64,000 bases of DNA, taken from contig CAYUIS010000003.1 in NCBI GenBank assembly GCA_964444825.1, positions 5,088-69,087 on the forward strand, written 5' to 3'. This document shows positions 8,045-28,010 of the stretch, one piece after another. This DNA is from an uncultured Anaerolineales bacterium (GTDB taxonomy: Bacteria > Chloroflexota > Anaerolineae > B4-G1). Within the stretch, counting starts at the first letter, position 1, and each line of letters opens with the position of its first letter. Position numbers and translations under genes: made by a program. Under the pieces are notes generated by a model that worked only from the letters and a program-made list of their open reading frames with translations, had not been told where the DNA came from and did not search any database.

Positions 8045-8731
8045 TCAGCTCTCTGCCTCCGCAGCCAACGCCTCCCGATCAAGGAGAATGATACGCTGTC
8101 GATCCATCTTCAGCAGGCCGGCATCCGCAAAGGCTCGCAACGTGCGCCCCACCATATCCCGTACTGTCCCAACGTGAGCGGCGATCTCCTCCTGTGTCCA
8201 GCGCTGCGTAATCTTGTCTTCTTCGGCACGTTCCAAAAGGAAACGGGCCAGTCGTCCCCGCACCGTGCGCAGCGCCAGATCCTCGACCAAACCGGTCAGG
8301 TGATCCAATCGGTCAGCGAAATCTCGGAGGATAACCAGCGCCAATTCTCCACACTCACTCACCAGGCGACGAAAATCATCCCGCCTGATCGCGTAGAGGA
8401 TACTTGCGGTGATGGACTCGGCAGTGGCATGATTGACACCATCGGGCTGAAACGGTGGCACCGTATTGAACGTCTGCCCCGCCCCTAGCCTCGCCAGCAC
8501 CTGCTCCCTCCCCCCTGGCGAAAGACGGTAGATCCGCACCTCACCCTCTGCAACGAAAAAGACGGCCTCGCAGGGATCTCCCTCAAAGATAATGGTCTCA
8601 CCCGGGCCGTGGACACTGGTATACGCGACGCGACACATTCGACCTAACGCTTCCTCCGAGAGATCGGCAAACAGGGCGATACGACGCAGGGCCTCAGGTG
8701 TAGGATTCATTGTCTTGCCATTGTAGCCCAA
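8045..8731 (-). CDS. Crp/Fnr-family transcriptional regulator (cNMP-binding domain + C-terminal HTH)
   Basis: A cNMP-binding beta-roll (GETIIFEGDPCEAVFFVAEGEVRIY) is followed by HTH_Crp (TQEEIAAHVGTVRDMVGRTLRAFADAGLL). It is divergent from the Fur-family gene. An alternative start at the second Met would be 8710. Confidence 0.8.
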   Translation of the reverse strand: MGYNGKTMNPTPEALRRIALFADLSEEALGRMCRVAYTSVHGPGETIIFEGDPCEAVFFVAEGEVRIYRLSPGGREQVLARLGAGQTFNTVPPFQPDGVNHATAESITASILYAIRRDDFRRLVSECGELALVILRDFADRLDHLTGLVEDLALRTVRGRLARFLLERAEEDKITQRWTQEEIAAHVGTVRDMVGRTLRAFADAGLLKMDRQRIILLDREALAAEAES

Positions 8732-8859
8732 ACCGCACCAGCGTCAAGAAGTGGTTCTCAATTGGGTCGCGATCGACGCCAGAATTGACAATCTGCCAGT
8801 CTATCCCTTGCGACAACGAGGTTTCTCTAGTATACTTCTTCCAGCAGGAAGGGCGATGC

Positions 8860-8888
8860 TTGACACGCGGCATCAACCCTGTTATAAT
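8860..8888 (+). promoter_or_regulatory. Consensus sigma70 promoter (TTGACA-17-TATAAT) for the Fur/PerR-like gene; a TTATA-N5-TATAA inverted repeat overlaps the -10 and is a possible operator
   Basis: TTGACA at 8860-8865, a 17-nt spacer, TATAAT at 8883-8888. The ATG at 8922 follows about 30 nt downstream. The palindromic TTATAATCGCTATAA overlaps the -10. Confidence 0.5.
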
Positions 8889-8921
8889 CGCTATAAGTTT
8901 AGAGGCATTACAAATAAACCT

Positions 8922-9356
8922 ATGACGTCTCTTGAGTCCCTGTGCGCACAACTTAAAGCTCACGGCCGCCGGGTGACCCCCCAGCGCCGGGCCATCATCC
9001 AGGTTTTGCTGGATGATGGGACACACGTCACTGCTGACCGCGTCTATACACAGGCACGGGATGTGATGCCCGATTTATCCCCTGCCACGGTCTACAACAC
9101 GCTCCACGAGTTGGCAGAGATGGGCATGCTGATGGAGTTGGACCTAGGGCTCGGCGAGCGCCGCTACGACATCCTGACGGCGGACCACGCTCACCTGGTC
9201 TGCCTCGAGTGCGGGCGCATTGAGGATGTGCCGTATGATTCTGGTACACTGGAGCTTTTGCCCGAGTATGCTTGCGGGTTCAAAGTTCTAGATCACAGAG
9301 TCACCTTTCGTGGTTACTGCCCCAAATGTGCTGTCCTCAAGGACAGGGAAAACTAG
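8922..9356 (+). CDS. perR: Fur-family metalloregulator, PerR-like (peroxide-responsive repressor)
   Basis: Has Fur-family DNA-binding helix and metal-site motifs (TPQRRAIIQVL, HHLVCLECGRIEDV, C-x2-C ... C-x2-C). The PerR call comes from context only: it heads a rubredoxin/rubrerythrin/peroxiredoxin/SOR island. The ORF track start at 8751 looks 5'-overextended; ATG 8922 is in-frame. Confidence 0.7.
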   Translation: MTSLESLCAQLKAHGRRVTPQRRAIIQVLLDDGTHVTADRVYTQARDVMPDLSPATVYNTLHELAEMGMLMELDLGLGERRYDILTADHAHLVCLECGRIEDVPYDSGTLELLPEYACGFKVLDHRVTFRGYCPKCAVLKDREN

Positions 9357-11421: not shown

Positions 11422-11603
11422 CCAGTCACTGGCCTACACGACTGGTGGGGCACCCAGATAGCCGCACTGGCTCCCGGGCATTCTTCATATAAGGAGAACA
11501 ACCTATGGCTAAAGAAACGGATTCCTGTGTACAGGCAGCGGCAGGGCCCTTGATGCCCGAACCAGTTGCTGCCGCAAGTGTGTCACCAAAGGAGGCAGTC
11601 AAG

Positions 11604-12218
11604 ATGACAACGGCAAGTGTGGGCAAAGAAGCGCCCGACTTTGAAGCCTCAGCCTATATCCCTGGCGAGGGTTTTAAGAATGTGAGGTTATCAGACTATC
11701 GAGGCCGATGGGTAGTGCTTTGCTTCTACCCCGGCGACTTTACCTTCGTCTGACCGACGGAGTTGTCGGCAGTTGCCGTCAGATACCCAAAGTTCAAGGA
11801 ACTGGGCGCAGAAGTCCTCGCCATGAGCACAGATAGCCGCTTCATCCACAAGATCTGGAACGAGGCAGAGTTGTCCAAGATGGTGGAAGGTGGCATCCCC
11901 TTCCCTATGCTCTCGGATGGGGGTGGGCGCGTCGGTAAGGTATACGGGGTACACGATGAGGCAGCAGGCGTGGATATCCGCGGCCGCTTCCTCATTGACC
12001 CTGACGGGGTCATCCAGGCTATGGAGGTGCTCACTCCGTCCGTGGGCCGCAACCCAGACGAGTTGATCCGCCAGCTCCAGGCCTTCCAGCACGTACGGGC
12101 GACCGGCGGTGCGGAAGTGACCCCCTCCGGCTGGACGCCCGGTAAGACCACCCTCAAGGTTGGTCCGCACCTGGTAGGCAAGGTGTGGGAAGTCTGGAAG
12201 CCAGGAGACGAGTCCTAG
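11604..12218 (+). CDS. Peroxiredoxin (AhpC/Prx family) with an in-frame UGA (11751-11753) at the peroxidatic Cys position; candidate selenocysteine-containing Prx
   Basis: ORFs 11505-11753 and 11763-12218 are in the same frame and separated only by one TGA. The sequence reads ...[14 protein letters not shown]-[TGA][11 protein letters not shown], and the universal Prx motif is FTFVCPTE. The TGA therefore occupies exactly the peroxidatic Cys codon. A strong RBS AAGGAGG lies upstream of ATG 11604. Confidence 0.7.
11754..11782 (+). promoter_or_regulatory. Candidate bacterial SECIS hairpin immediately 3' of the in-frame UGA
   Basis: The hairpin is UUGUCGGC-AGUU-GCCGUCAG (11763-11782): a 6-bp stem with one U-U mismatch and a G/U-containing apical tetraloop. 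The apex sits about 19-22 nt after the UGA, inside the window allowed for SelB-binding elements. An alternative stem GACGG/CCGUC spans 11756-11780. Confidence 0.35.
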
Positions 12219-12789: not shown

Positions 12790-13314
12790 TTGAATATGGA
12801 ACTAGAGGGCAAACGTATTGCCATTTTGGCTGAGGATATGTATCAGGAACTGGAACTGTGGTATCCCCTCTTGCGCATGCGAGAGGCCGGCGCAGAGGCC
12901 GTCGTCGTGGGTATGCCCGGCGTGAGCGAATACCACAGCAAACACGGGTATCCAGTACAGGTGGAAGCCACCGCCGACGAGGTCTCGGCCGGCGAATTCG
13001 ACGCCGTCATCATTCCGGGCGGTTTCGCGCCCGACCGGATGCGCCGCCATCAGCCGATGCTTGGCCTGGTGAAAGGCGTGTTCGAGCGTGGCGGTATTGT
13101 CGCCGCCATCTGCCACGCCGCGTGGGTGCCGATCTCTGCGGGTATTCTAGAGGGCAAGCGAGCCACCTGCGTCTCGGCGATCAAGGATGACGTTATCAAC
13201 GCGGGAGCGACCTACGTGGATGCAGAGGTGGTGCAGGACGGCAACCTGATCACCTCTCGGGTCCCCAGCGACCTGCCCGTCTTTTGCCGTACCATCATCG
13301 CCGCACTGAAATAG
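12790..13314 (+). CDS. DJ-1/PfpI-family protein (class I glutamine amidotransferase-like; deglycase/protease)
   Basis: The nucleophile elbow AICHAAW is present. Motifs IAILAEDMYQELEL and VIIPGGFAPD fit the PfpI/DJ-1 fold. Confidence 0.8.
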   Translation: MNMELEGKRIAILAEDMYQELELWYPLLRMREAGAEAVVVGMPGVSEYHSKHGYPVQVEATADEVSAGEFDAVIIPGGFAPDRMRRHQPMLGLVKGVFERGGIVAAICHAAWVPISAGILEGKRATCVSAIKDDVINAGATYVDAEVVQDGNLITSRVPSDLPVFCRTIIAALK

Positions 13315-13380
13315 AGAACATAGTCACAGACAAACTTGCCAAAAGGAAACAGTAGTACACAACATGTGAGGAGGTAACTG

Positions 13381-13779
13381 ATGAGATTTGGAGACAGGAT
13401 TCAACAGGCAGACTGGAAGAAGGAAAAGCACGTCCCAGTCATCGAGTGCCCGGACGAGGTACAGGCCGGTGAACCATTCGAGGTGAAGGTTGGCCTGGGG
13501 AAAGAGATTGCCCATCCCAACACCACCGAACACCACATTAGTTGGGTCTCCCTCTATTTTCACCCTGAGGGCGACAAGTTCAGCTACGATGCGGGCCATT
13601 TTGAGTTCAACGCTCACGGCGAGTCGGCCGCGGGCCCCAACCAAGGCCCCGTCTACACGCATCACCAGGTGACAGCAACGCTGAGGATCAACAAGCCTGG
13701 CACGCTGTACGCTGTAGCTATGTGCAACATTCACGGGCTATGGGAAAGCAACAAGGAGATCAAAGTCAGCTCCATCTGA
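13381..13779 (+). CDS. sor: Superoxide reductase, 1Fe (neelaredoxin-type) desulfoferrodoxin family
   Basis: The hallmark EKHVPVIE motif is present, with His/Cys ligands (HPNTTEHHISW, CNIHGLWE). There is no N-terminal desulforedoxin Cys cluster, so this is the class II 1Fe form. Confidence 0.8.
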   Translation: MRFGDRIQQADWKKEKHVPVIECPDEVQAGEPFEVKVGLGKEIAHPNTTEHHISWVSLYFHPEGDKFSYDAGHFEFNAHGESAAGPNQGPVYTHHQVTATLRINKPGTLYAVAMCNIHGLWESNKEIKVSSI

Positions 13780-13863
13780 GGTAATGGGCTCCGATCCCCG
13801 CGGGGTAGGCACGTATGCCTGCCCTGCGGGCTCTCCGTGGGGGCGGGTCATGGGAGGACAGAT

Positions 13864-14775
13864 ATGACAGAGACTTTCTCGGTGACCTTTTGGGGGGTAC
13901 GAGGCGGCTACCCCAAACCTGGCCCAACGACGACCGAATTCGGCGGTAATACCACTTGTCTAGAAGTCCGAGCTGGCAACCACCTGATCATCATCGACGC
14001 TGGTACGGGCATCATCGGTTTGGGCGAAAAGCTGGTCGCTCAGCACCAGGCCGACAAGCGACCTGTCGTGGCCAGCATATTGTTCACCCATACCCATCAC
14101 GACCACACCCAGGGTTTCCCATTCTTTATGCCATCCCATTTGGGCAGCAGTATCCTACACATTTTTGGGCCCAGGCTACTGCACGAGGACTTGGAGGCCG
14201 TCCTGGCCCGTGCCATGCTACCACCGGTGCACCCCATTCGCCTGGACGAACTAGGCGCTATGCGCGTTATCCGGAACATCTCCAACAACGAGGTGATCGT
14301 CTTCTCCGATCCAGAGACACCTCCACAGATATGCAACGCGTATCGCGCGGATGCGATTTGCTCCCCATGGGAAGCCAAGGTCGGGATTATGCGTGGCTAC
14401 AACCATCCACAGGGTGTTTTCCACTACCGCATCGAGATGGGGGACAGGAAGTTGGTGATCGCTAATGACACGGAAGGGTATGTTGGTGGTGATAGACGGC
14501 TGATCCAATTTGCCCGTGGAGCCAGTGTGCTTATTCACGACGCAGAGTTCACCACGGATGAGTATGTCAAGGGACCTCCTTCCCGGCAAGGATGGGGTCA
14601 CAGCACCTGGGAGATGGCTGTACAGGTAGCTGAAGCTGCCCAGGTCGAGCGCCTGGTCCTCACCCATCACAATGCTCACCACGATGACGCGTTTCTCAAA
14701 GATATGGAACGACAGGCCCAGGCAGTCTTCCCCGCGACAATGATGGCCCGCGAGGGTCTGACCCTGGAATTGTGA
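13864..14775 (+). CDS. MBL-fold metallo-hydrolase
   Basis: HxHxDH motif (FTHTHHDHTQG) with downstream His/Asp ligands. A start at the 13837 GTG/ATG is also possible. Confidence 0.7.
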   Translation: MTETFSVTFWGVRGGYPKPGPTTTEFGGNTTCLEVRAGNHLIIIDAGTGIIGLGEKLVAQHQADKRPVVASILFTHTHHDHTQGFPFFMPSHLGSSILHIFGPRLLHEDLEAVLARAMLPPVHPIRLDELGAMRVIRNISNNEVIVFSDPETPPQICNAYRADAICSPWEAKVGIMRGYNHPQGVFHYRIEMGDRKLVIANDTEGYVGGDRRLIQFARGASVLIHDAEFTTDEYVKGPPSRQGWGHSTWEMAVQVAEAAQVERLVLTHHNAHHDDAFLKDMERQAQAVFPATMMAREGLTLEL

Positions 14776-14788
14776 TGGGGAGCCGACA

Positions 14789-15856
14789 ATGGTGTCGTGG
14801 TTTCGCAAGAAGCGCGTAACAACAGACCTGCGAGCGCTGGTGGACCGCTTGGCGACCTATGGTGTACCCGACGCGATTCTGGACAAGCTGGAAAGCTATC
14901 TGCGCGAGGCAAGCGACCGCGAGCTGTACCAGGCCAACCCACGCCACATTGCCGCGCAGTTGGGGATTGACGCACATTCCGCTCTAGGCATCCTGGCGTA
15001 TGCAGTGCAGGAGGGGCTGTTCGAGCTTAACTGGGACGTACATTGCCCACACCATGGCCGAATACGCAGCTACTCTACACTAAACGAGAGCCGTGGTCAG
15101 GAGTATTGCCCCCTTTGTGAAGCAAGTTTTGACGCCCACCTGGACGACGAGGTTCATGTCACCTTCACTGTCAACGAGAGGGTACGCAAGCTCTCGACGC
15201 ACGAACCGCTCCCTGATGATGCCCATCCGCCGACCTACGGACTGGAGCTCTTGAACGTCCAGCCATTTCGGGATCTATTCTCCGATGAGACCCTCCCCCT
15301 TGGCGAGAGTCTCAAGGTCAAACGAGTCGCGTTTCTGTTCACGGACCTACTTGGATCGACGGCGATGTACGCGCGTGAAGGCGACCCCAGAGCATATGGA
15401 TGGGTCCGGCAGCACTTTGACGTGCTGTTTGAGGCAGCCAATCGCAACCGGGGCGTCACGGTAAAGACAATCGGCGACGCGGTGATGGCCTCATTTGTGA
15501 CGCCTGGCGATGCATTTCGGGCCACTGTAGACGTACATCAAAGTATGATAGGTCTGAACCGCCAGTTGGGACTGAGAGGAGACAAGGCCCTGATGATCCG
15601 TCAGGGGACACACGTCGGACCGTGCATTAGCGTGACCTTGAACGAACAGTTGGATTACTTTGGCAAGACAGTGAACATCGCTTCGCGCATAAGCCATCTT
15701 TCCCATGGAGGCGACGTGGTGCTTAGCGAAGCGATGATGTCGGATTCAGAGGTCCGCGCCGAGGCAACCCAGCAGGGAGCGATAGAGAGCTTTGTGACCG
15801 ACTTGCGAGGCTTTGATCGGCGTTTTGAATTACGGCGACTGATCTTTGCGGATTAG
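14789..15856 (+). CDS. Class III adenylate/guanylate cyclase with a novel N-terminal Cys4 (CPHHG...CPLCE) domain
   Basis: The C-terminal CHD domain reads VAFLFTDLLGSTAMYA...VKTIGDAVMASF. The roughly 170-aa N-terminal domain carries C-P-H-H-G ... C-P-L-C, a possible metal/redox sensor. Confidence 0.75.
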   Translation: MVSWFRKKRVTTDLRALVDRLATYGVPDAILDKLESYLREASDRELYQANPRHIAAQLGIDAHSALGILAYAVQEGLFELNWDVHCPHHGRIRSYSTLNESRGQEYCPLCEASFDAHLDDEVHVTFTVNERVRKLSTHEPLPDDAHPPTYGLELLNVQPFRDLFSDETLPLGESLKVKRVAFLFTDLLGSTAMYAREGDPRAYGWVRQHFDVLFEAANRNRGVTVKTIGDAVMASFVTPGDAFRATVDVHQSMIGLNRQLGLRGDKALMIRQGTHVGPCISVTLNEQLDYFGKTVNIASRISHLSHGGDVVLSEAMMSDSEVRAEATQQGAIESFVTDLRGFDRRFELRRLIFAD

Positions 15857-15910
15857 CGGAGTGGGTTGTGCATAGTTGTTCTACGTTGTACAATGTTGGA
15901 GGCGATAAAC

Positions 15911-16084
15911 ATGACAGAGACTGTGATATGCGACTATTGTGGCGAGGAGACTGAGGGAGAACCTATTCGCCGTGGTGATAAGGTCTACTGCAGCGAGGCC
16001 TGCGCCTTTGAGGCCAGTCGTAGCGCTGACTGTGGCGGTCGGTCCGACTCTACCTTCTCTCCACCGGTTGTCGAGCAAACATAG
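15911..16084 (+). CDS. Small TRASH-domain-like metal-binding protein (57 aa)
   Basis: The protein reads MTETVICDYCGEETEGEPIRRGDKVYCSEACAFEASRSADCGG, a C-x2-C-x17-C-x3-C pattern with the YCSxxC typical of TRASH/YHS metallochaperone domains. A GGAGG RBS lies 9 nt upstream. It sits immediately upstream of the encapsulin cargo gene. Confidence 0.45.
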   Translation: MTETVICDYCGEETEGEPIRRGDKVYCSEACAFEASRSADCGGRSDSTFSPPVVEQT

Positions 16085-16105
16085 ACGGCAAGACCGGAGG
16101 AATTG

Positions 16106-17062
16106 ATGAATGACAAACAAGCACTAATAGATATGCTGAACGCCGATCTGCGGGACGAGCATGCATCTGTGATTCGATACTTGATCCACGCTTATCAAGT
16201 CGGTGAGGATACTTCGTTAGGAGCCATGCTCCTATCGATGGCCCGCGAAGAGATGTGGCACATGGATTGGCTGGCCGACGCCATCGGTGAAATGGGCGCG
16301 GAGCCGGACATGGCCCCAGGTTTGTATCCTCACGATCCAGCGTCGAACGCGTCCTTGCTGCGTTCGTACATAGAATGGGAAGACGGTTTGGTCAAAGCAT
16401 ATGCCGGCCAAGCTGAGCGAGTCAGTGACCCCGAGATCAAGAGGATATTGACACAGCAGAGCCTGGAGTCAGCCATCCACAGCCAGCGCTTTGCCTCAGC
16501 CCTGCAAAAGTTGGGCGTGGAGGGTGAAGAGCCGCTGGCTTGTGAGGACTCGGGTAAGTTTTCGCCTGACATGGTGCGGCGACTTCAGGATGAGATGACG
16601 GACGAGTACAAGCTGATGCTTCAACATCTGCGACACGCCTTCGTCTTTGAGCACGACCATCCAGAGTTTGGCGAACTGGAGCTTGTGGCCATGCGGCACA
16701 TGAAGCACATGTCTCACTTCGCTGAGGAGCTCGCAGAATCTGGCCACGAACCACAGTTCGAGCTACCCGACCTGGACATGAGCCAGTCGGCCGATGTGGC
16801 ACTACAATCAAATCTGGAATTGACCAAGGAAGCACAGGCACGATTCATCAACCTGAGTCAAGAACCTGAGCTGGCAGAACACCCCGGACTCAAACTGGAA
16901 GTCGAGAATATGGTCATCCAGGAAGAGTTCCTGACCGCTACCATTCACGAGTTGCAGGAAGAAGCGACCATCGAAGGAGAATCATCCTCTGAACCGCAAT
17001 TCGGAGCCCCGGGCCATCGTTCACCGGGTGATCTTACTGTCGGTAGCTTGATGAAAGAATAG
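16106..17062 (+). CDS. Tandem ferritin-like (bacterioferritin/rubrerythrin-like diiron) protein with a C-terminal encapsulin targeting peptide; encapsulin cargo
   Basis: Two four-helix-bundle ferritin-like halves each carry E..H and EE..H motifs (LRDEHASVIRYL, AREEMWHMDWL; FVFEHDHPEF, MRHMKHMSHFAEEL). A Gly/Ser/Pro-rich linker is followed by the C-terminal ...PGDLTVGSLMKE, matching the family-1 targeting-peptide consensus (LTVGSL as in M. xanthus EncB/C). The gene sits directly upstream of the shell gene. Confidence 0.7.
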   Translation: MNDKQALIDMLNADLRDEHASVIRYLIHAYQVGEDTSLGAMLLSMAREEMWHMDWLADAIGEMGAEPDMAPGLYPHDPASNASLLRSYIEWEDGLVKAYAGQAERVSDPEIKRILTQQSLESAIHSQRFASALQKLGVEGEEPLACEDSGKFSPDMVRRLQDEMTDEYKLMLQHLRHAFVFEHDHPEFGELELVAMRHMKHMSHFAEELAESGHEPQFELPDLDMSQSADVALQSNLELTKEAQARFINLSQEPELAEHPGLKLEVENMVIQEEFLTATIHELQEEATIEGESSSEPQFGAPGHRSPGDLTVGSLMKE

Positions 17063-17071
17063 GAGGTTAAC

Positions 17072-17887
17072 ATGAGTGACTATTTGATGCGTGACGACGC
17101 TCCCTTGAGCGTCAAGGAATGGGAGCGGCTGGACGAAATGGTGATCTTGGCAGCTCGACGTGTGCTGGTGGGTCGCCGGTTTATCAGTCTGGCCGGACCG
17201 CTCGGTTTTGGGACACAGGTGGTGCCACTGGACAAGGTCGAGGGCAGCGGCGCATGCCGCCACGATGCCGGCACCTGCACCGAAGATGATGTGGTACACG
17301 TCACTGGGCGTCAGTTCATCCCCATGACGCTCATCCACAAGGATTTCTTCTTGGCCTGGCGTGATGTCGAGGCCGCCCATCAATCCGGCGCAGGGCTTGG
17401 ACTGGGTCCGGCTGCGGCCGCCGCCGTCCGCGTGGCCCGGGCCGAGGACGAGATGATCTTCCAAGCGCTCCTGAATGCGGAAGGAAGGCAGACCGCGTCC
17501 CTAAAGAACTGGGAAACCTCTGGCAACGCGCTGATGAACGTCGTTGAAGCCCGTCAGGCCCTGGCCGATGCTGGCTTCTACGCCCCGTATGCTTTGGTCG
17601 TGAGCACCGGTCTGTATGCGGATCTCCAGCGCGTCTACAAGGGCTCTGGTCGACAGGAGCAGAAACTGGTGAGCAACATCGTTGATGGTGGCATCTTCCA
17701 ATCACCAGTGCTGGCTCCAAAGCAGGCGCTGATGATCTCCCAAGGCCCCCATCATCTGGATTTGGCGGTGGGGCAAGACATGGTCACCGCTTACCTGGGG
17801 CCAGAGGAAATGGATCACCGGTTCCGGGTGCTGGAGACTCTGGTTCTACGAGTCAAGCAGCCCGGAGCCGTTTGTGTTTTCGAATAA
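17072..17887 (+). CDS. enc: Encapsulin nanocompartment shell protein, family 1 (HK97 fold, linocin M18-like)
   Basis: A 271-aa protein that aligns along its whole length with T. maritima / M. xanthus encapsulins: N-terminus LSVKEWERLDE...LVGRRFISLAGPLGFG, mid YALVVSTGLYADLQ, C-terminus LAVGQDMVTAYLGPEEMDHRFRVLETLVLRVKQPGAVCVFE. Confidence 0.85.
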   Translation: MSDYLMRDDAPLSVKEWERLDEMVILAARRVLVGRRFISLAGPLGFGTQVVPLDKVEGSGACRHDAGTCTEDDVVHVTGRQFIPMTLIHKDFFLAWRDVEAAHQSGAGLGLGPAAAAAVRVARAEDEMIFQALLNAEGRQTASLKNWETSGNALMNVVEARQALADAGFYAPYALVVSTGLYADLQRVYKGSGRQEQKLVSNIVDGGIFQSPVLAPKQALMISQGPHHLDLAVGQDMVTAYLGPEEMDHRFRVLETLVLRVKQPGAVCVFE

Positions 17888-17925
17888 GGACAAGATAACA
17901 TCTAGCCTTAAGGAGGCAACAAGAA

Positions 17926-18393
17926 ATGGCTGTTTTCACTGCCGCCCAAGCACTTGAAATGGCAATGGAAATCGAAAAGAACGGCGAGGTCTTTTACCTT
18001 GCCGCCGCCGAGAAGGTCGACGACTCCGAAGTCAAAACCCTGTTCAAAGACCTTGCCATCCAGGAACAGGGACACTACCAGATATTCCAGAAAATGTTGG
18101 GAGCGGTAGAACCAGCTCCTGATCTACCTGCGGCTGAGTTCGACCAGTACGATTCCTACATCCAGGTCGCCCTGGAGAACGCACTGTTCGCTGGACCAGA
18201 CAAGGCTCTAGCGATGGCGGAGCAGGCCGCGGATCGAGAGACAGGGCTGCGGGCGGCGCTAGGCTTTGAGAAGGACACGATGCTGTTCTTCTATGACGTG
18301 CGTGAGATGGTGGCCGAATCAGACCGAGAGGCCATCTCCAACGTCATTCGGGAGGAGAAGAAACACATGCGTCGGCTGGCCAAGATGCTGTAG
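17926..18393 (+). CDS. Rubrerythrin/erythrin-like ferritin-like diiron protein (no rubredoxin domain, no obvious targeting peptide)
   Basis: A single four-helix ferritin-like domain with MEIEKNGEVFY...LAIQEQGHYQIF and a second E..H half (EKDTMLFFY...REEKKHMRRL). Confidence 0.6.
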   Translation: MAVFTAAQALEMAMEIEKNGEVFYLAAAEKVDDSEVKTLFKDLAIQEQGHYQIFQKMLGAVEPAPDLPAAEFDQYDSYIQVALENALFAGPDKALAMAEQAADRETGLRAALGFEKDTMLFFYDVREMVAESDREAISNVIREEKKHMRRLAKML

Positions 18394-18407
18394 AGGCCAA
18401 TATACCT

Positions 18408-19610
18408 ATGCGTCCCATTGAGATTACACCCGGCATATACTGGATCGGCGTCAATGATCGCACCACCGACCTCTTTGAGGGACTGTGGCCCATTACGCAG
18501 GAAGGCGTCTCCTACAATTCGTATCTGATTGACGATGAAAAGAAAGCCATCATAGACCTGTCCAAAGCCCTAAAGACGGACGAGTTCTTTGATCAGATCG
18601 ATCAGGTCACCGACATCTCTCAGTTGGACTATATCATCATCAACCATATGGAGCCAGACCACTCTGGCGTCTTGCGCACGCTGTTGAGAATAGCTCCCCA
18701 GGTAACTATCTTGGGCACCCAAAAGACCCGCTCGATGCTCGAATCATTCTACGGCATCACCAGCGGCGTTGAGGTCGTCCAAGACGGGGACACCCTCCAG
18801 TTGGGTCGACATAGCCTCAAGTTTGTCTACGCACCCTTCGTGCACTGGCCCGAGACGATGATGACGTATGAAACCAGCCAGGAGATACTGTTCTCCTGTG
18901 ACGCTTTCGGCAGCTATGGTGCCTTGCGAGGCAGTATTTTTGACGATGAGTATGACGATCCCGAGTTCTATGAGCAGGAGGCGCTACGCTACTATGTCAA
19001 CATCGTGTCCGTCTTTAGCAAGCCGGTTCTGAAAGCGATTGAGAAACTGGCCAACGTACCGGTCTCCATTATCGCTCCTTCCCACGGCCTCGTCTGGCGG
19101 GCGAATCCACAGCGTATCGTCGAGCTCTACAAACAATGGGCGGAGTATGCCACAGGCCCCACAGAATTGGGCGTCACGCTGATCTACGGCTCGATGTACG
19201 GCAACACTGAGAAGATGATGAACGCCATAGCACACGGCATCTCTCAGGAGAGCGTACCGCTGGCTATCTTTGACGTAAACCACACGCACGTCAGTTACAT
19301 TCTACCTTCTATGTGGACGCAGCGAGGGGTGATGGTAGGTGCACCCACGTACGAAGGATCGCTCTTTCCCCCGATGGCCCAGGTGCTGACTATGGCCGCC
19401 ACCAAGCGAGTTCGTAACAAGCAAGTGGCTCGCTTTGGAAGCTATGGATGGAGCGGAGGCGCGCAGCGTCACTTTGAGCGGCTGATCGAGCCGCTGCAGT
19501 GGGAGCTGACGGAATCGTTCGAGTTTGTCGGCAGCCCGTCAAACGAGGATCTGAGACATGGCGAAGAGTTCGGAGCCAGGTTTGCGAGGATTCTGAAAGA
19601 CACTGATTGA
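18408..19610 (+). CDS. Flavodiiron protein (class A FDP: metallo-beta-lactamase-like diiron domain + flavodoxin domain); O2/NO reductase
   Basis: The N-terminal MBL-like domain carries INHMEPDHSG. The C-terminal flavodoxin-like domain carries GVTLIYGSMYGNTEKM, the FMN-binding loop. The length of 400 aa is typical. Confidence 0.8.
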   Translation: MRPIEITPGIYWIGVNDRTTDLFEGLWPITQEGVSYNSYLIDDEKKAIIDLSKALKTDEFFDQIDQVTDISQLDYIIINHMEPDHSGVLRTLLRIAPQVTILGTQKTRSMLESFYGITSGVEVVQDGDTLQLGRHSLKFVYAPFVHWPETMMTYETSQEILFSCDAFGSYGALRGSIFDDEYDDPEFYEQEALRYYVNIVSVFSKPVLKAIEKLANVPVSIIAPSHGLVWRANPQRIVELYKQWAEYATGPTELGVTLIYGSMYGNTEKMMNAIAHGISQESVPLAIFDVNHTHVSYILPSMWTQRGVMVGAPTYEGSLFPPMAQVLTMAATKRVRNKQVARFGSYGWSGGAQRHFERLIEPLQWELTESFEFVGSPSNEDLRHGEEFGARFARILKDTD

Positions 19611-21131: not shown

Positions 21132-21422
21132 ATGTCAGAGGCAAAGGGGCACATAGAAGGATCCCAGGGAGATCGACGCACCGTGTTCTATGGATTATCT
21201 ACCTGCATCTGGTGCAAACGAACGCGCCAGTTCCTAGAAGACCAGCAGGTGGAATTCGACTATATTTACGTGGACAAGCTGAAGGGTGAGGAGAGAGAGG
21301 AAGCAGTCGAGGAAATCAAGCGCTGGAACAAAGCCGTGTCGTTCCCGACCATTGTAATCGATGATAAGGAATGCGTCATAGGGTACAAACCTGAGGAGAT
21401 CAAAAAGGCACTAGGACTGTGA
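21132..21422 (+). CDS. Glutaredoxin/thioredoxin-like CxxC protein
   Basis: Thioredoxin-fold motifs: TVFYGLSTCIWCKRTRQFLE ... FPTIVIDDKECVIGYKPEEI. The active site is CIWC. Confidence 0.6.
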   Translation: MSEAKGHIEGSQGDRRTVFYGLSTCIWCKRTRQFLEDQQVEFDYIYVDKLKGEEREEAVEEIKRWNKAVSFPTIVIDDKECVIGYKPEEIKKALGL

Positions 21423-21425
21423 ACT

Positions 21426-21785
21426 ATGAGTGAAGAAATCACCATCCCCCCTGATAGAGTAGACCGAGTCTACGAGAATCTGGACAAGTGGGCAGAGTCG
21501 ACCGGGTATCATCTCAATCCTGACCAAGAGTTTACCCGGCAACTGGTGGAAGGATTGCTCATCAATCGGCAGCGATACGGCTACCAGTCCTGTCCCTGCC
21601 GACTGGCATCGGGAGACAAGGACAGGGACAAAGACATCGTCTGCCCCTGCGCGTACCGCGATCCCGACCTGGAAGACTGGGGAGCCTGCTACTGCGCCCT
21701 ATATGTCTCGGATGAGGTCCTGCAAGGCGAACGTACGGTTCAGCCGATCCCGGAACGGCGGCCAGTGGAGAAGCAATTCCCGTAA
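21426..21785 (+). CDS. Ferredoxin:thioredoxin reductase catalytic-subunit-like protein (FTRc-like, 4Fe-4S + redox disulfide)
   Basis: Signature CPC...CPC...CYC arrangement ([41 protein letters not shown]). It begins 4 nt after the glutaredoxin-like gene and is in the same frame. Confidence 0.75.
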
Positions 21786-22880: not shown

Positions 22881-25004
22881 AACATGTAATGTTTAGTGGC
22901 GCGAACCGCGCCGAATAAATCAATTCCGCTTTTGTGGTACATTTATCCCGCATCTTGTTTGCGGGAGTAGACGTGAATATCCATATCGCACTATCAGATT
23001 GCACGTTATCAACTGAACACCAGGCCATCGTTAATGCGCTCAATAGGTTTCTGGCATTGCTACCAGACGATGACGATCCCGACGCGGCCCTCCGGCTGGC
23101 GATGGAGATACTGGAAGCCGCCGATGTGGCTCCGCAGGAAGTGCTGGCACAGACGGCGGGCTTCACCCAATCCCGTTCAGTGCGGGCATACAAGCAAAGA
23201 CTGCGGGAAGAAGGTCTGAGCGGACTGTTTGACCGTCCGATTCCAGGGCGGCCGGCAGTCACCACGCAGCCAGTGGTCGAGAGGGCGCTGCTCCAGCACA
23301 TCTTGAGCGCCGTGATCGAGGAGCACGCGTTGCCTGACGACGAAGTGTTGGCCCAGCGAGTAAACCAGGAGTTGAGCATAGCGCAAGCTCCAGAAGCAGG
23401 AAGTGTGACTGCTTCAATGGTCGAGAGCATCCGCCTACGGTGGGAGGTGCGACGTCCGGTCATTGCCCAGAAGTTGCAGGCCTCGCTGTCGTCGGAGGCA
23501 GTCGAGTCGGACACGGCCCAGCTTGGGCGCACGCGGGTTGGGGGTGCCTTCATCCTGGCCATTTTGCTGGTGGAGATAGGATGGTTGAGGTTTGCCCATC
23601 TGCTGCCCATGGCCCGTGGGTATGCGGTGACGGCGACCCAATGGCTGCTGACGGCTATCTTCTCCGTCATCTACGGCATCCGGCGGGCGTTTCACCTGGA
23701 CGATGTACGGGACATTGGGTTTGCCCTGCTGACCGGACGTCCACGGCCACTCACCCACGGCACCTTCCAACACTTGTTGCGCGCCATAGCGGCGGAGGAT
23801 GCAGAGCGGTTCTACCAGGCCACGGCTGAGCAAGAAGTCCAAGCGTTGGGGAATGGGACGCGCCGCATCAGCCTGGATGGGCACAACTTGCCGCGCTGGA
23901 CGCGCTTGGTGGACCTGGTCAAAGGCAAGATTGGCAACACGGGCCGCATTCTCAAGGCGGACGAGTTGGTGTTAGCCTACGATCTGGATGCGCTCCGCTG
24001 GCTGGGCTTGCGGGTCTATCAAGGGACCAAGAAGCTGAGCAAAGGCTTGATCGAGATCGTGCGCGAGTTGCTCAAGCACCGAGGGACGCTCGATGGTCTG
24101 CTGCGCTTGTTCTTCGACAAAGGGGGCTACAGTGGGCAGAACTTCCGGGCGCTGGCTGATGAACCAGCTGTCCATTTCTACACACCAGCGGTGCGGTATC
24201 CAGGCAGTGTGACCCAGTGGGAGCAACTGCAGGAGACCGACTTTGATTCAGAACCGTTCGTCTTCGACAAGCACGCAGACCTACCCGAGGAAGAACGGCC
24301 CGCCTATCGCCTGGCTGACACGGAGATGACGATCAACGTGTGGGAGAAGCAGAAGGTGGTGGACACCATTACGCTACGGGCTATCATCGTCCACGACCCC
24401 CAAGGAAAGAAGCCAGCCGAGCGCTGGCCGGTGGTCCTGCTCACCGATGACCGCCAGATCGAGGCCAGGGATTTGCTCAACGAGTTTGGTGACCATTGGG
24501 GCCAGGAGTTTGGGCATCGAATTGGCAAACACGACCTGTACCTGGACATCCTGCCACAAGGGTATGTGCTAAAAACCCAACGAGACAAGCAGGGACGACT
24601 GCACCGCGAGGTCGAGTACGATCAAACGGCCCTTTTCCTGTCCGCTTGGCTGCGTTGCCTGGTGTTCAACCTGATGAGCTGCTTTGCCCAAGCATTGGGA
24701 GGAGAGTACGCCAAGATGTGGGCTGGAACCTTGCTGAGAAAGTTCATACGCCGTCCGGCGACCCTGTATTTGATTGATAAAGAGCTACACGTCGTCTTTG
24801 ACCCCTTCCCGGGTCAAGATGAACTCCAGCCATTGCTGGACAAGCTAAACGTCAAACGAACACCGTTGCCTTGGCTCAACAACCTAGTCGTGCAGTTCAG
24901 CATCGCCCAGGATGAGCCACTTCATCCGCTGGCGGAGCCCGAAAAGCGGAATCGACTTTTTGGAGATGGAGAGCACCAGTGAAGCTCTCTAAACATTCCA
25001 TGTT
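22881..25004 (+). mobile_element. Putative insertion sequence (about 2.1 kb) with 16-bp imperfect terminal inverted repeats, inserted about 90 bp upstream of tRNA-His
   Basis: The left end AACATGTAATGTTTAG (22881-22896) and the right end CTAAACATTCCATGTT (24989-25004) are inverted repeats with 15/18 matching positions. They bracket a single 682-aa transposase-like ORF. No clear target-site duplication was found. Confidence 0.4.
22934..24982 (+). CDS. Putative DDE transposase (N-terminal HTH with the GLSGLFDRPIPGRP motif)
   Basis: The N-terminal helix-turn-helix is followed by ...EEGLSGLFDRPIPGRP, as in IS630/IS481-type transposase N-termini. Candidate catalytic acidic residues are ISLDGHNLPRW, LFFDKGGYSGQNF and VVLLTDDRQIEARD. 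The gene is flanked by inverted repeats. Confidence 0.5.
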   Translation: MVHLSRILFAGVDVNIHIALSDCTLSTEHQAIVNALNRFLALLPDDDDPDAALRLAMEILEAADVAPQEVLAQTAGFTQSRSVRAYKQRLREEGLSGLFDRPIPGRPAVTTQPVVERALLQHILSAVIEEHALPDDEVLAQRVNQELSIAQAPEAGSVTASMVESIRLRWEVRRPVIAQKLQASLSSEAVESDTAQLGRTRVGGAFILAILLVEIGWLRFAHLLPMARGYAVTATQWLLTAIFSVIYGIRRAFHLDDVRDIGFALLTGRPRPLTHGTFQHLLRAIAAEDAERFYQATAEQEVQALGNGTRRISLDGHNLPRWTRLVDLVKGKIGNTGRILKADELVLAYDLDALRWLGLRVYQGTKKLSKGLIEIVRELLKHRGTLDGLLRLFFDKGGYSGQNFRALADEPAVHFYTPAVRYPGSVTQWEQLQETDFDSEPFVFDKHADLPEEERPAYRLADTEMTINVWEKQKVVDTITLRAIIVHDPQGKKPAERWPVVLLTDDRQIEARDLLNEFGDHWGQEFGHRIGKHDLYLDILPQGYVLKTQRDKQGRLHREVEYDQTALFLSAWLRCLVFNLMSCFAQALGGEYAKMWAGTLLRKFIRRPATLYLIDKELHVVFDPFPGQDELQPLLDKLNVKRTPLPWLNNLVVQFSIAQDEPLHPLAEPEKRNRLFGDGEHQ

Positions 25005-25096: not shown

Positions 25097-25174
25097 GGTG
25101 GATGTAGCTCAATTGGTTAGAGCACTGGTCTGTGGAACCAGAGGTTGCGGGTTCAAGTCCCGTCATCCACCCCA
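25097..25174 (+). tRNA. tRNA-His (anticodon GUG) with encoded G-1 and encoded 3' CCA
   Basis: Hand-folded cloverleaf. Acceptor GUGGAUG/CAUCCAC, with the extra 5' G-1 (25097) opposite discriminator C73. D arm GCUC-AAUUGGUUA-GAGC. Anticodon arm CUGGU-CUGUGGA-ACCAG (GUG). T arm GCGGG-UUCAAGU-CCCGU. The 3' CCA is 25172-25174. Confidence 0.9.
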
Positions 25175-25373
25175 AATCTGATACACGGCTATCACAGAAC
25201 ACTAGGACGAAAAGTTGAAGCCCGGAAAGAGCTCCTACTCAATCGCTTCAGTAACCCGCGTCCACCACCAACGAGCGTGGCGCCGTCCGCACGCGCATCA
25301 CCATCATACCACCAACCACGCTCGAAGGGAGCTCTGATAGATCAGACTCTGCAGAGTAGATCAGCTTCTTCAA

Positions 25374-25408
25374 GCGTGGAACACCCCGGTGTCCGCGCTT
25401 TTTCTTTT
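25374..25408 (+). terminator. Intrinsic terminator/attenuator hairpin in the hisS leader (11-bp stem, CCCG loop, UUUUUCUUUU tract)
   Basis: The sequence GCGUGGAACACC-CCCG-GGUGUCCGCGC is followed by TTTTTCTTTT and ends about 38 nt before the hisS ATG. Upstream lie a CA-rich His-codon-rich tract (25261-25320) and a TAGATCAG direct repeat flanking a CTCTGCAGAG palindrome. Confidence 0.5.
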
Positions 25409-25445
25409 GCACAGCCCGGTCATAGTCACTCCAGGAGGCCAAAAG

Positions 25446-26966
25446 ATGGAACAAGTGAAACCCAAACTGCCCCGCGGGATGCGAGACATGCTACCCCAGA
25501 ACATGATCCTGCGCCAGTACGTCGTACGAGTCATCCAGGACGTCTTTGAAGAATTCGGCTTCGAGCCCTTGCAGACGCCGGCCGTCGAGCTGGAGGAGAC
25601 GCTGATGGGCAAATACGGCCCCGATGCCGAGCGGTTGATATACAACGTCGGTCACACTGGGGGCAGGGAGAGGCTTGCCCTGCGCTACGACCTCTCGGTA
25701 CCCCTATGTCGCGTGGTTGCCCAGTATCCCGACCTTAGCAAGCCGCTCAAGCGATACCAGATCGCGCCGGTGTGGCGGGCCGAGCGCCCGCAGAAAGGCC
25801 GCTACCGAGAGTTCTATCAGTGTGACGCGGACACCGTCGGCTCGGACAGTATGCTGGCTGACGCCGAGATCGTCAACGTCATCTATGAGATATTGCGCAG
25901 GCTGGGCTTTGAGCGATTCGTGATCAATATCAACAACCGCAAGATCATCGCCGGCATTGGCCAACTCGCCGGCGTGCCCGACGACCTATTGGGAGGGTTG
26001 TACCGCTCCATCGACAAGCTCGACAAGATCGGGTTGGAGGGCGTCAGGACCGAGCTACGCCAGACCGGCCTGGGTGATGCCGTCTCCATCCTGAGAAAGG
26101 CCCAGGTACCCAAGACGTTGATCGCCGGCCTCGTGGAAGATTTGCGCGGGCCGGATCTGGACGGCGTGGCATCCAAGCTCCGCCAGGCAGACGTGGAGCC
26201 AGAGACGAGCGCCGACATCTTGGACCAACTGTCGGCCCTGGACCTGGAGAACAGGGCCACGATACCCGAGATGGTGATCGAGCGGTTGCTCGAGTTCCTG
26301 GGGATCGAGGGCAGCAACAGGGAGATCCTCGCCCAACTGCGGCAGTGGCTGGCCGACTATCCGGACGCCCTGGCAGGGGTCGCCGAATTGGAAAAGATGA
26401 CCGGCTACCTGGAGACGCTTTCCATCCCGGAGGCGGTCTGCCCTGTGGTTCCGTCAATGGTGCGGGGACTGGAATACTACACAGGGCCGATCTATGAGAC
26501 AATCGTCGAGGAACCCAAGATCGGGAGCATCACGGGCGGCGGGCGCTACGACAAACTGATCGGGGTCTTTACCGATCGTAGCTATCCAGCCACCGGCACC
26601 ACCATTGGCATCGAGCGCATCATCGACGTGATGGAGGAACTAGGTATGTTCCCACCTGAGGTCGGTACCACGGTGACTCAGGTATTGGTCACGCTGTTCA
26701 GCCCGGATTTGGTCACAGAATCGATTCAACTGGCCCGAGACCTGCGCCAGACAGGGCTGAACACCGAGCTGTATTTCGATGACGATCCCCTGGGCAAGCA
26801 GATTCGCTACGCCTTGAAGAAAGGGATCCCCTACGTAGCGATCCTGGGACCAGACGAGGTGGCTGCCGGGCAGGTAACGGTCCGCAACCTAGAAATGAAA
26901 CAGCAAGAGACGGTCTCTCGGGCACAGGTTATGGCTCGTATCAAGGCGTGGCAGGAAGAGCGCTAG
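25446..26966 (+). CDS. hisS: Histidyl-tRNA synthetase (class II aaRS)
   Basis: The N-terminal PRGMRDMLP and motif 2 (RYREFYQCDAD) are present. The C-terminal anticodon-binding domain reads IPYVAILGPDEVAAGQVTVRNLE. The ORF track start at 25389 is probably too far 5'. Confidence 0.8.
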   Translation: MEQVKPKLPRGMRDMLPQNMILRQYVVRVIQDVFEEFGFEPLQTPAVELEETLMGKYGPDAERLIYNVGHTGGRERLALRYDLSVPLCRVVAQYPDLSKPLKRYQIAPVWRAERPQKGRYREFYQCDADTVGSDSMLADAEIVNVIYEILRRLGFERFVININNRKIIAGIGQLAGVPDDLLGGLYRSIDKLDKIGLEGVRTELRQTGLGDAVSILRKAQVPKTLIAGLVEDLRGPDLDGVASKLRQADVEPETSADILDQLSALDLENRATIPEMVIERLLEFLGIEGSNREILAQLRQWLADYPDALAGVAELEKMTGYLETLSIPEAVCPVVPSMVRGLEYYTGPIYETIVEEPKIGSITGGGRYDKLIGVFTDRSYPATGTTIGIERIIDVMEELGMFPPEVGTTVTQVLVTLFSPDLVTESIQLARDLRQTGLNTELYFDDDPLGKQIRYALKKGIPYVAILGPDEVAAGQVTVRNLEMKQQETVSRAQVMARIKAWQEER

Positions 26967-27002
26967 ACGGCGCTGGTCCTATATGCGATGGAGGAAAAGT
27001 CA

Positions 27003-28010
27003 ATGACCAAAAGGAGCGACATTCGCCTGTCACTACCCAGCAAGGGCCGCCTAGCAGAGGATGCTGCCAGATTGCTGAGCGCCTGTGGCCTGGCGATCGA
27101 TAAGCCCAACCCACGCCAGTACGCCGCACGTATTCTCGCCCTGCCCGGACTGACCGTGCTCTTCCAACGGCCTGGCGACATTGTCGTCAGCGTGCGGGAT
27201 GGTAGCGTGGACTTGGGCATTACCGGGATGGACATGGTGGCGGAGCGTCGAGGAGCCAACGGCACGGTGCTCGTACTCCACGACGGGCTGGGTTTTGGCC
27301 ACTGCCGTCTGGCAGTGGCAGTGCCGGAGGAGTGGGAGACGGTTCACACGATGGAGGACCTGGCACGCTACAACCAGGCACTCGGACGCCCGGTCCGCGT
27401 GGCAACAAAGTTCCCGCACCTCACAGGCGAGTTCTTGACTCGCCACGGCGTCCCGCATGCCGTCATCGATGCCGAAGGCACATTGGAGGTCGCACCAGCC
27501 ATCGGCTACGCCGATCTCATCACCGATCTGGTCTCCTCAGGGCAGACGCTGCGAGATAACCGGCTGCGCGCTCTTGAAGACGGCATTGTCATCCGCTCGC
27601 AGGCCACTCTGATCGCCCATCGACCTGCCTTGCAGAGCCGCCCACAGGTATTGGCGCTTGCGCGCACGTTGCTCGAGACCATCGAAGCTCACCTGCGAGC
27701 CGAGGAGCATCTGTCGATCGTGGCGAATATGCGAGGCGAATCGCCCCAAGCTATCGCCCAACTGATGTTCGAACAAAGGACGCTCGGCGGGCTCCAGGGC
27801 CCTACCATCTCGCAGGTCGTCGTCCGTGATGGAAACTCTAGCTGGCACGCCGTACACATCGTCGTACGCCAGGATCAGTTGTTCGAGGCAGTGAGCGAAC
27901 TGCGCGCTATTGGCGGCAGTGGCGTCGTCGTCACACCAGTGGTCTATATCTTTGAGGAGGAACCAGACCGCATCCGGGCCATGATGGAGACGCTTGATGA
28001 AGTCACCTGA
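27003..28010 (+). CDS. hisG: ATP phosphoribosyltransferase, long form with C-terminal regulatory domain
   Basis: The N-terminus reads RLSLPSKGRL...LLSACGL, the PRPP loop reads DLITDLVSSGQTLRDN, and a C-terminal regulatory domain is present. Confidence 0.85.
   Translation: MTKRSDIRLSLPSKGRLAEDAARLLSACGLAIDKPNPRQYAARILALPGLTVLFQRPGDIVVSVRDGSVDLGITGMDMVAERRGANGTVLVLHDGLGFGHCRLAVAVPEEWETVHTMEDLARYNQALGRPVRVATKFPHLTGEFLTRHGVPHAVIDAEGTLEVAPAIGYADLITDLVSSGQTLRDNRLRALEDGIVIRSQATLIAHRPALQSRPQVLALARTLLETIEAHLRAEEHLSIVANMRGESPQAIAQLMFEQRTLGGLQGPTISQVVVRDGNSSWHAVHIVVRQDQLFEAVSELRAIGGSGVVVTPVVYIFEEEPDRIRAMMETLDEVT

Follow-up and report, generated by a model that had tools for sequence, protein, structure and literature searches.

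A 64-kb stretch of contig CAYUIS010000003.1 from an uncultured Anaerolineales bacterium (the window; all positions are those of the whole stretch) carries on its forward strand the gene for a 318-residue ferritin-like cargo protein (16106-17062), followed by the gene for a 271-residue encapsulin shell protein (17072-17887). Together these form a two-gene family-1 encapsulin module whose genes are always adjacent in Chloroflexota. The cargo is assigned to the double ferritin-like proteins (DFLPs), and the module lies in an array of oxygen-defence genes behind a PerR-like regulator. It probably oxidises and sequesters iron during oxygen exposure, as the iron-sequestering arm of an anaerobe's response to O2 and peroxide. 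The operon is a further example of a described cargo type and leaves the known kinds of encapsulin cargo unchanged; what goes beyond published descriptions is confined to clade-specific active-site changes and a conserved association with an oxygen-stress cluster.

The shell and cargo proteins

Four open reading frames (ORFs) were confirmed on the forward strand where a first-pass annotation of the sequence had placed them, each preceded by a strong Shine-Dalgarno sequence of the GGAGG type. They encode a 57-residue mini-protein with four cysteine residues (15911-16084), the cargo, the shell, and a 155-residue erythrin-like protein (17926-18393). The cargo and shell genes are separated by 9 nucleotides (nt), and the ribosome-binding site of the shell gene overlaps the cargo stop codon. 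In the GC profile the two-gene module is unremarkable in composition.

The product of 17072-17887 had been called a family-1 encapsulin, and the proposed search with hidden Markov models bore this out, with 234.7 bits for NCBIfam NF041155 (encap_f1, an equivalog model with a cut-off of 100) and 211.5 bits for PF04454 (cut-off 24.3). Its residues 1-271 align end to end with M. xanthus EncA (PDB ID: 4pt2; E 6e-61, 209 bits) with a single 8-residue deletion. The T=4 shell of Q. thermotolerans (6nj8; E 1.6e-56) is among the next best matches, and the small T=1 shells of T. maritima (5e-15) and M. tuberculosis are far weaker, at 5e-15 or worse. On these alignments the shell is an EncA-like HK97-fold family-1 encapsulin.

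The cargo had been described as built from two ferritin-like diiron halves. The Pfam Ferritin profile matches residues 8-133 only (29.7 bits), yet BLASTP finds one half similar to the other (E 3e-6). A confident AlphaFold2 model from 54 homologues (predicted local distance difference test score (pLDDT) 91.8; predicted template modelling score 0.85) contains eight long helices in a 4+4 arrangement. The N-terminal ferritin-like domain comprises residues 1-142 (16106-16531; helices 3-32, 37-62, 81-105, and 109-141) and the C-terminal one residues 154-292 (16565-16981; helices 154-181, 186-211, 229-251, and 260-292). A fifth 'E' helix is found in neither domain of the model. The two four-helix bundles of the earlier description are therefore retained, but a diiron ligand set is present in the N-terminal half alone.

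A search of solved structures with the cargo returned one strong match, a 306-residue 'bacterioferritin' (9viw_A; E 6.7e-24), of which both domains align with the N-terminal half of the cargo. This entry is the structure of TmDFLP, reported in the 2025 preprint in which the DFLPs were named and defined with 157 members (10.1101/2025.09.13.676036). The defining features are two four-helix ferritin-fold domains in one polypeptide and a relationship to bacterioferritin; the cargo has them, and it is on this basis a DFLP, that is, a 'Bfr-type' cargo. The suggestion in the first-pass annotation that tandem fusion makes a ferritin-like cargo unusual was not upheld, because two-bundle 'Bfr' encapsulin cargos, including those of Chloroflexi, were listed in 2021 (Andreas & Giessen; PMC8346489) and characterised in the 2025 preprint. 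When the N- and C-terminal domains of TmDFLP were compared pairwise with the two cargo halves, the scores of 140, 157, 78, and 57 did not discriminate between them and left a single shared duplication unconfirmed. Other cargo classes were rejected from family scores: EncFtn/Flp (TIGR04535, 18.9 bits against a cut-off of 125), EncB (NF058679), for which there was no match in the NCBIfam scores, and IMEF.

Relatives of the cargo and its targeting peptide

A word-indexed protein database search with the cargo gave 394 clusters at E <= 1e-5. The residue counts given below are based on the 120 best of them. These 120 relatives are 54-97% identical to the cargo and nearly all 296-339 residues long, and the few named members are Anaerolineae metagenome-assembled genomes (MAGs). 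A profile search of 1.84 billion representatives at 50% identity recovered 293 proteins only at E <= 1e-3, the clade of the window accounting for one or two of them, which indicates that the whole DFLP family is small in diversity. An alignment of 79 sequences, consisting of 76 full-length representatives together with the query, P0026, and TmDFLP fragments, was used for comparisons across the family.

The C-terminal domain of the cargo is followed by a disordered linker (residues 293-309; 16982-17032) of low pLDDT and poor conservation, and then by the hexapeptide LTVGSL (residues 310-315; 17033-17050), MKE, and the stop codon, so that the chain ends in ...PGDLTVGSLMKE. The last 30 residues have a pLDDT of 54-63. 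LTVGSL is the sole targeting-peptide-like motif in any frame of the window, and its reading as a targeting peptide in the first-pass annotation is strengthened by its conservation across the family. Nearly all of the 120 relatives end in [FLW]T[VI]GSL plus 0-8 residues, with T311, G313, and L315 invariant, while the preceding linkers differ in both length and sequence. A uniform peptide behind variable linkers is the pattern expected of selection on a docking peptide. A motif of this type occurs in 52 of the 79 aligned family sequences, with several near misses besides, and in the preprint 56 DFLPs are reported to carry a targeting peptide of the [LF]T[VI]GSL type (10.1101/2025.09.13.676036). 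None of the C-terminal tails in Figure S6 of the preprint matches those of the 120 closest relatives exactly. Judged by its motif and position, LTVGSL is of the type by which cargo proteins dock into family-1 shells.

Active-site residues of the cargo

In DFLPs the N-terminal domain carries the canonical ligand set EEHEEH, which is present in 79.6% of members, and the C-terminal domain is more variable (10.1101/2025.09.13.676036). The N-terminal domain of the cargo is canonical at five of the six positions, and the corresponding residues E18, E49, H52, E92, and H125 are invariant in the 120 relatives. The fifth ligand position, 122, is Ser in all 120, and a Glu is found one residue earlier, at position 121 (117 Glu, 3 Asp). 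Most other representatives of the DFLP family have Asp-Glu at positions 121-122, and the E121-S122 pattern is confined to 6 of the 79 aligned sequences. A probable ferroxidase centre is made up of E18, E49, H52, E92, E121 (with S122), and H125.

The C-terminal domain keeps the fold, but the alignment indicates that its diiron site is lost, three of its six ligand positions being occupied by His, Thr, and Leu. The canonical Glu at position 198 is replaced by His and that at position 240 by Thr, each in 120/120 relatives, although Glu is found at the latter position in 60/79 sequences across the family; Leu takes the place of the canonical His at position 276, again in 120/120. The canonical His at position 201 is kept in 113 of 120, and the two remaining positions, both canonically Glu, are variable (167: 77 E, 25 Q, 18 H; 273: 77 E, 38 N). 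The first-pass annotation had named the lack of conserved diiron ligands in the cargo halves as evidence that would count against its reading, and this lack applies to the C-terminal half, whereas the N-terminal half keeps a ligand set in which one Glu is shifted. Since the C-terminal site is still canonical in P0194, the next related cluster, the loss is recent and clade-specific.

Two methionine residues, one per domain, are 100% conserved among DFLPs and have been put forward as putative haem ligands (10.1101/2025.09.13.676036). Their counterparts in the cargo, M50 in the N-terminal and M199 in the C-terminal domain, are invariant in 120/120 relatives, and the pair is present in 77 of the 79 family sequences. 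M50 and M199 are therefore candidate haem-ligating residues.

Gene neighbourhood of the module

The DFLP gene was located in 26 genome loci taken from one-genome-per-species contigs, 22 of them from Chloroflexota. In 22/22 Chloroflexota loci the encapsulin gene directly follows the cargo stop codon. Three DFLPs from Actinomycetes have neither a nearby encapsulin nor a targeting peptide, and the DFLP of a Syntrophus MAG, in which the C-terminus is masked, has no nearby encapsulin.

In the window the module is part of an array of genes on one strand (+), with gaps of at most 90 nt, that extends from the PerR-like regulator through a rubredoxin-like gene. The order is PerR-like regulator, rubredoxin (Rd), NADH:rubredoxin oxidoreductase (NROR)-like flavoprotein, rubrerythrin (Rbr), peroxiredoxin (Prx), a second rubrerythrin, DJ-1/PfpI, superoxide reductase (SOR), metallo-beta-lactamase (MBL)-fold protein, DUF5939-cyclase, mini-protein, DFLP, encapsulin, erythrin-like protein, flavodiiron protein (FDP), and rubredoxin-like protein. 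Beyond the array follow a response-regulator/histidine kinase, a glutaredoxin-like protein, a ferredoxin:thioredoxin reductase (FTR)-like protein, and a SagB-type nitroreductase. The setting proposed from the first reading of the sequence, with Rd, NROR, Rbr, SOR, and FDP genes behind a Fur-family regulator, was hence recovered.

The array is syntenic in loci L027-L031 and L033 (cargo identities 92%, 81%, 78%, and 72%) and partly kept in L001, L002, L007, and L032. Down to a cargo identity of approximately 63% the module remains between the SOR and FDP genes (L001, L002, L007, and L027-L033). In the more distant L038 the two-gene module stands alone among unrelated genes, and in the distant L039 it lies amid genes for bacillithiol synthesis, rubredoxin, OsmC, and ferritin. 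Classical ferritin genes are also found within the same clusters in L031 and L037, which shows that these clusters repeatedly include a function in iron sequestration.

The regulator and its promoter

The first gene of the array encodes a PerR-type Fur-family regulator. Its longest ORF (8751-9356 (+), 201 residues) is too long; conservation places the start at the ATG at 8923, 3' of the promoter, and this is likely the true start of the gene (8923-9356). Among solved structures the regulator matches B. subtilis PerR best (2fe3; E 7.9e-28), and in alignment with it the regulator keeps the equivalents of all five regulatory residues, H37, D85, H91, H93, and D104, as well as of C96/C99. The residue at D104 is Asp in the regulator and Glu in the aligned Fur protein 9ire. 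Of the NCBIfam models PerR scored best with 94.7 bits (cut-off 180), followed by Fur with 92.1 bits, both scores being below their cut-offs.

A sigma-70-type promoter, TTGACA-17-TATAAT with an upstream TG, matches at 12/12 positions at 8860-8888 (+), inside the listed ORF. It is overlapped at its -10 hexamer by a Per-box-like element, TTATAATCGCTATAA (8882-8896, +), which has 2 mismatches and is the sole match in the window to the B. subtilis Per-box consensus TTATAATNATTATAA at <=3 mismatches; at least one match somewhere in the window was obtained in 14 of 100 shuffles. The same layout of promoter and Per-box occurs in L031 and L033. At this place L033 has a perfect 12-nt inverted repeat, TTATAATCGCTA...TAGCGATTATAA. 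Taken together, the reading of the region as a PerR-type island is reasonably well supported.

A terminator scan yielded fewer sites than in shuffled sequences and none at 13300-18900, which is compatible with co-transcription, albeit weak as evidence.

The genes flanking the module

The mini-protein upstream of the cargo had been called a TRASH-type metallochaperone. A likeness to TRASH remains, with the pattern CxxC-x18-CxxxC and a 'VYCSEACAFEA' segment compared with the TRASH spacing C-x2-C-x19-22-C-x3-C, but all Pfam matches fall below their gathering thresholds (Arc_trans_TRASH, PF08394, 23.9 against 27; Metallothio_Pro, 21.5 against 33). The family as a whole is unannotated; it comprises 73 clusters of 56-71 residues, with named ones from Chloroflexi, and shows a likeness to TRASH domains as well as to the zinc-finger portion of bacterial metallothionein. 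One member adjoins a P-type ATPase.

The gene lies directly upstream of the DFLP gene in the window and in L027-L031 (for example L030 5818-5979 and L031 5659-5850) and is absent from L033, L001, and L002. Homologues are found in L034-L037, which contain neither DFLP nor encapsulin, L034 and L037 being oxygen-stress clusters. A role as a core component of the operon was rejected, as a relaxed phmmer search of the 26 DFLP-bearing genome loci gave nothing below E 0.38.

The erythrin-like protein downstream of the shell was confirmed as a diiron-type protein with a rubrerythrin domain only (PF02915; 45.9 bits, cut-off 22.8) and, as had been noted, without a targeting peptide; a targeting peptide is never found on the product of this gene. 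The gene type of the window follows the shell gene in L002, L027-L031, and L033. A second sequence type, ending in ...NYESLSTMGGWV, is directly after the shell gene in L004 (3623-4126), L006, and L039 (6843-7331). This second type looks unrelated to that of the window and occurs in more distant DFLP-encapsulin loci. At least two sequence types of an untargeted diiron protein have thus come to follow the shell gene.

The window's type also occurs without encapsulin, in L037, where the order SOR, mini-protein, erythrin, FDP is that of the window minus the MBL-fold, cyclase, DFLP, and encapsulin genes. The first-pass annotation had implied a tie of the mini-protein and the erythrin-like gene to the encapsulin operon. 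This connection was given up, because the two are also present in oxygen-stress clusters without DFLP and encapsulin (L034, L037), and they are best regarded as parts of the cluster. Between them, the DFLP and encapsulin genes have the look of a two-gene cassette.

Proposed function and alternative explanations

In this bacterium and its nearer relatives, the position of the module in a co-directional array of PerR, Rd, NROR, Rbr, probable selenocysteine (Sec)-peroxiredoxin, SOR, and FDP genes makes it the probable iron-sequestering arm of the oxygen and peroxide response. In the mechanism proposed, which draws on the characterised DFLPs and on the EncA and IMEF systems, the N-terminal diiron centre (E18, E49, H52, E92, E121, and H125) would oxidise Fe2+ with O2 or H2O2, and the resulting Fe3+ would be laid down as a mineral inside the shell. 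M50 and M199 could bind a haem between the two domains in the manner of bacterioferritin, and this haem may aid electron transfer for iron release. The C-terminal domain, with its catalytic site lost, would then serve mainly as a structural and haem-binding partner. Sequestration of iron on contact with O2 or H2O2 would limit Fenton chemistry in an oxygen-sensitive cell, a role that matches the one generally ascribed to Dps/MrgA in the PerR regulon of B. subtilis.

Several observations weigh against this proposal. Ferroxidase activity of the cargo is assumed, although its canonical fifth N-terminal ligand is Ser and the Glu is shifted by one residue. Co-transcription with perR is inferred only from the shared strand, gaps of at most 90 nt, and a lack of predicted terminators, and the scan of the 64-kb window found no Per-box before the cargo gene, so that PerR control of the encapsulin genes would need read-through transcription. 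In more distant members, such as L038, the module is in unrelated surroundings, which suggests that the link to oxygen stress is clade-specific and not a property of the module itself. Finally, a DFLP inside its native shell has nowhere been demonstrated experimentally, the basis in the preprint being motifs and AlphaFold models (10.1101/2025.09.13.676036).

A more specific version of the proposal is possible and is offered tentatively. According to this, the remodelled DFLP of the clade, with its shifted N-terminal Glu and an invariant R-H-M-K-H patch in place of the C-terminal diiron site, would together with the shell constitute a PerR-controlled iron sink induced by oxygen stress, an encapsulin counterpart of Dps in strict anaerobes, in which H2O2 may act as oxidant and haem may carry electrons. 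If true, this would be the first such regulation, and the first such role in anaerobes, for any DFLP-encapsulin system.

Among the alternatives, housekeeping iron storage survives best, although it is unlikely. The placement among oxygen-stress genes would then be incidental and control exerted by iron status rather than peroxide. Most of the 22 Chloroflexota loci, as well as L038, hold cargo and shell without oxygen-stress neighbours, and Fur-family regulators are hard to classify, as illustrated by the nearly equal, sub-cut-off scores of the PerR and Fur models. However, the SOR-FDP position is kept to approximately 63% cargo identity (L001, L002, L007, and L027-L033), the distant L039 module is again surrounded by redox-stress genes (bacillithiol synthesis, Rd, OsmC), and the regulator has all five PerR residues, including Asp at D104 where the aligned Fur has Glu.

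Still less probable is a detoxification nanoreactor, in which the diiron/haem cargo would mainly reduce H2O2 or O2 with electrons passing through the shell and without a significant mineral core. This could account for the neighbours, all of which are scavengers of O2 or reactive oxygen species (ROS) (Rbr, SOR, FDP, Prx, NROR, and Rd), and for the recurrence of an untargeted rubrerythrin-like gene of two sequence types after the shell gene; moreover, the shifted N-terminal Glu and the His-rich C-terminal site are unlike storage-type centres. On the other hand, the only characterised DFLP is a ferroxidase, the shell is nearest to the iron-mineralising EncA and Q. thermotolerans shells, and the window encodes no reductant-delivery protein with a targeting peptide.

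A shell within a shell, in which 12 cargo chains (24 domains) form a bacterioferritin-like cage packed in the encapsulin, was proposed by Andreas & Giessen 2021 (PMC8346489) and has a parallel in the dodecameric cage of an Asgard double-ferritin protein (preprint 10.64898/2026.08.25.747088), but it is highly improbable here, given that the latter belongs to a different, ferritin-derived lineage, that neither domain of the cargo model has an 'E' helix, and that TmDFLP and CaDFLP are dimers or monomers by size-exclusion chromatography with multi-angle light scattering, small-angle X-ray scattering, and crystallography and gave no cages with AlphaFold3 (10.1101/2025.09.13.676036).

With iron oxidation and sequestration during oxygen exposure as the favoured function, the module is of use in several respects. 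As native-shell loading of a DFLP is still to be demonstrated, any well-defined operon can serve as a test case. The 394 clusters amount to a very large collection of natural variants in which the targeting peptide is uniform, and the clade in which the second diiron site is lost is a natural experiment on the purpose of the C-terminal domain. The neighbourhood data in addition offer a conserved genomic tie between the module and the PerR-type oxygen defence of anaerobic Chloroflexota.

Other features of the window

The peroxiredoxin gene of the array (11505-12218, +) has an in-frame TGA (11751-11753) exactly at the position of the peroxidatic Cys. L027/L028 have the same TGA, as does L001, a relative at 72% identity in which gene callers split the gene in two. 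The gene probably encodes a selenocysteine peroxiredoxin. No tRNA-Sec was detected in the window, and in a search for a selenocysteine insertion sequence the RNA 3' of the TGA folded no better than shuffled sequence (z = -0.01).

The DUF5939 adenylate/guanylate cyclase (14789-15856, +) lies inside the oxygen-stress array, and a Crp/Fnr-type regulator binding cyclic nucleoside monophosphates (8045-8731, -) is divergent from perR. These two genes hint at a cyclic-nucleotide input to the cluster.

The glutaredoxin-like and FTR-like pair (21132-21785, +) has weak NCBIfam matches to selenoproteins (Uxx-star and the FtrB double-selenoprotein) and ordinary codons; in L003 and L007 the pair is directly after the shell gene. 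A 682-residue ORF without a Pfam match (22934-24982, +) follows the nitroreductase gene. Further downstream (25098-30443) are a tRNA-His, the sole Rfam match in the window, and histidine genes (a HisS-like protein, HisG, HisD, and an aminotransferase). In L027 (92% identity) OsmC, a rubrerythrin-like gene, and pyruvate:ferredoxin oxidoreductase are found there instead, indicating that the right end of the cluster has been rearranged.

Comparison with known systems

The operon resembles the described DFLPs most closely. The cargo shares with them a single chain of about 300-320 residues, two four-helix bacterioferritin-like domains, both putative haem methionines, a probable N-terminal ligand set of the ferroxidase type, a more divergent C-terminal domain, and a C-terminal [LF]T[VI]GSL. 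The characterised DFLPs, TmDFLP and CaDFLP, form dimers rather than cages, with sub-stoichiometric haem and ferroxidase activity, and the CaDFLP gene, which has rubrerythrin and rubredoxin genes around it, immediately precedes a family-1 shell gene (10.1101/2025.09.13.676036). The arrangement in the window is the same, with an EncA-like shell gene directly downstream of the cargo gene and rubrerythrin and rubredoxin genes nearby. Differences are found at the level of sequence and setting. The cargo is about 25-30% identical to TmDFLP, with a phmmer match confined to its N-terminal half, and has E121-S122 where D-E is usual. The C-terminal replacement of Glu, Glu, and His by H198, T240, and L276 is absent from the deviations listed in the preprint (ESHEEH, KKQVEQ). 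Moreover, the member in the window belongs to an Anaerolineae clade, and its module lies within a long PerR-headed cluster.

The EncA-EncB/C/D system of M. xanthus has a shell that aligns end to end with that of the window and a targeting motif, as quoted in the preprint, with an identical LTVGSL core. Its cargo is a ferritin-like ferroxidase, as that of the window probably is, and an iron mineral core is presumed in the window's case. EncB and EncC are, however, single-domain proteins of about 100-160 residues of the encapsulated-ferritin/Flp class, whereas the window's cargo is a fused two-domain relative of bacterioferritin with haem-type methionines. The IMEF system of Q. thermotolerans (Firmicutes, T=4) also has a related shell, and its cargo is a dimeric four-helix-bundle ferroxidase for iron storage with an FTVGSL-type peptide. 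IMEF is not homologous to the window's cargo at the family level, and unlike IMEF systems the window has no ferredoxin bearing an N-terminal targeting peptide.

With regard to regulation, the PerR regulon of the strict anaerobe C. acetobutylicum comprises rbr, dfx, rd, nror, and fprA, and that of B. subtilis includes Dps/MrgA. In the window the iron sequesterer would be an encapsulin with a DFLP rather than a Dps dodecamer, under presumed PerR control. The array nevertheless shares with the C. acetobutylicum regulon the same set of O2- and ROS-scavenging genes behind a PerR-like regulator and, as in B. subtilis, includes a presumed iron-sequestering member of the ferritin superfamily in this set.

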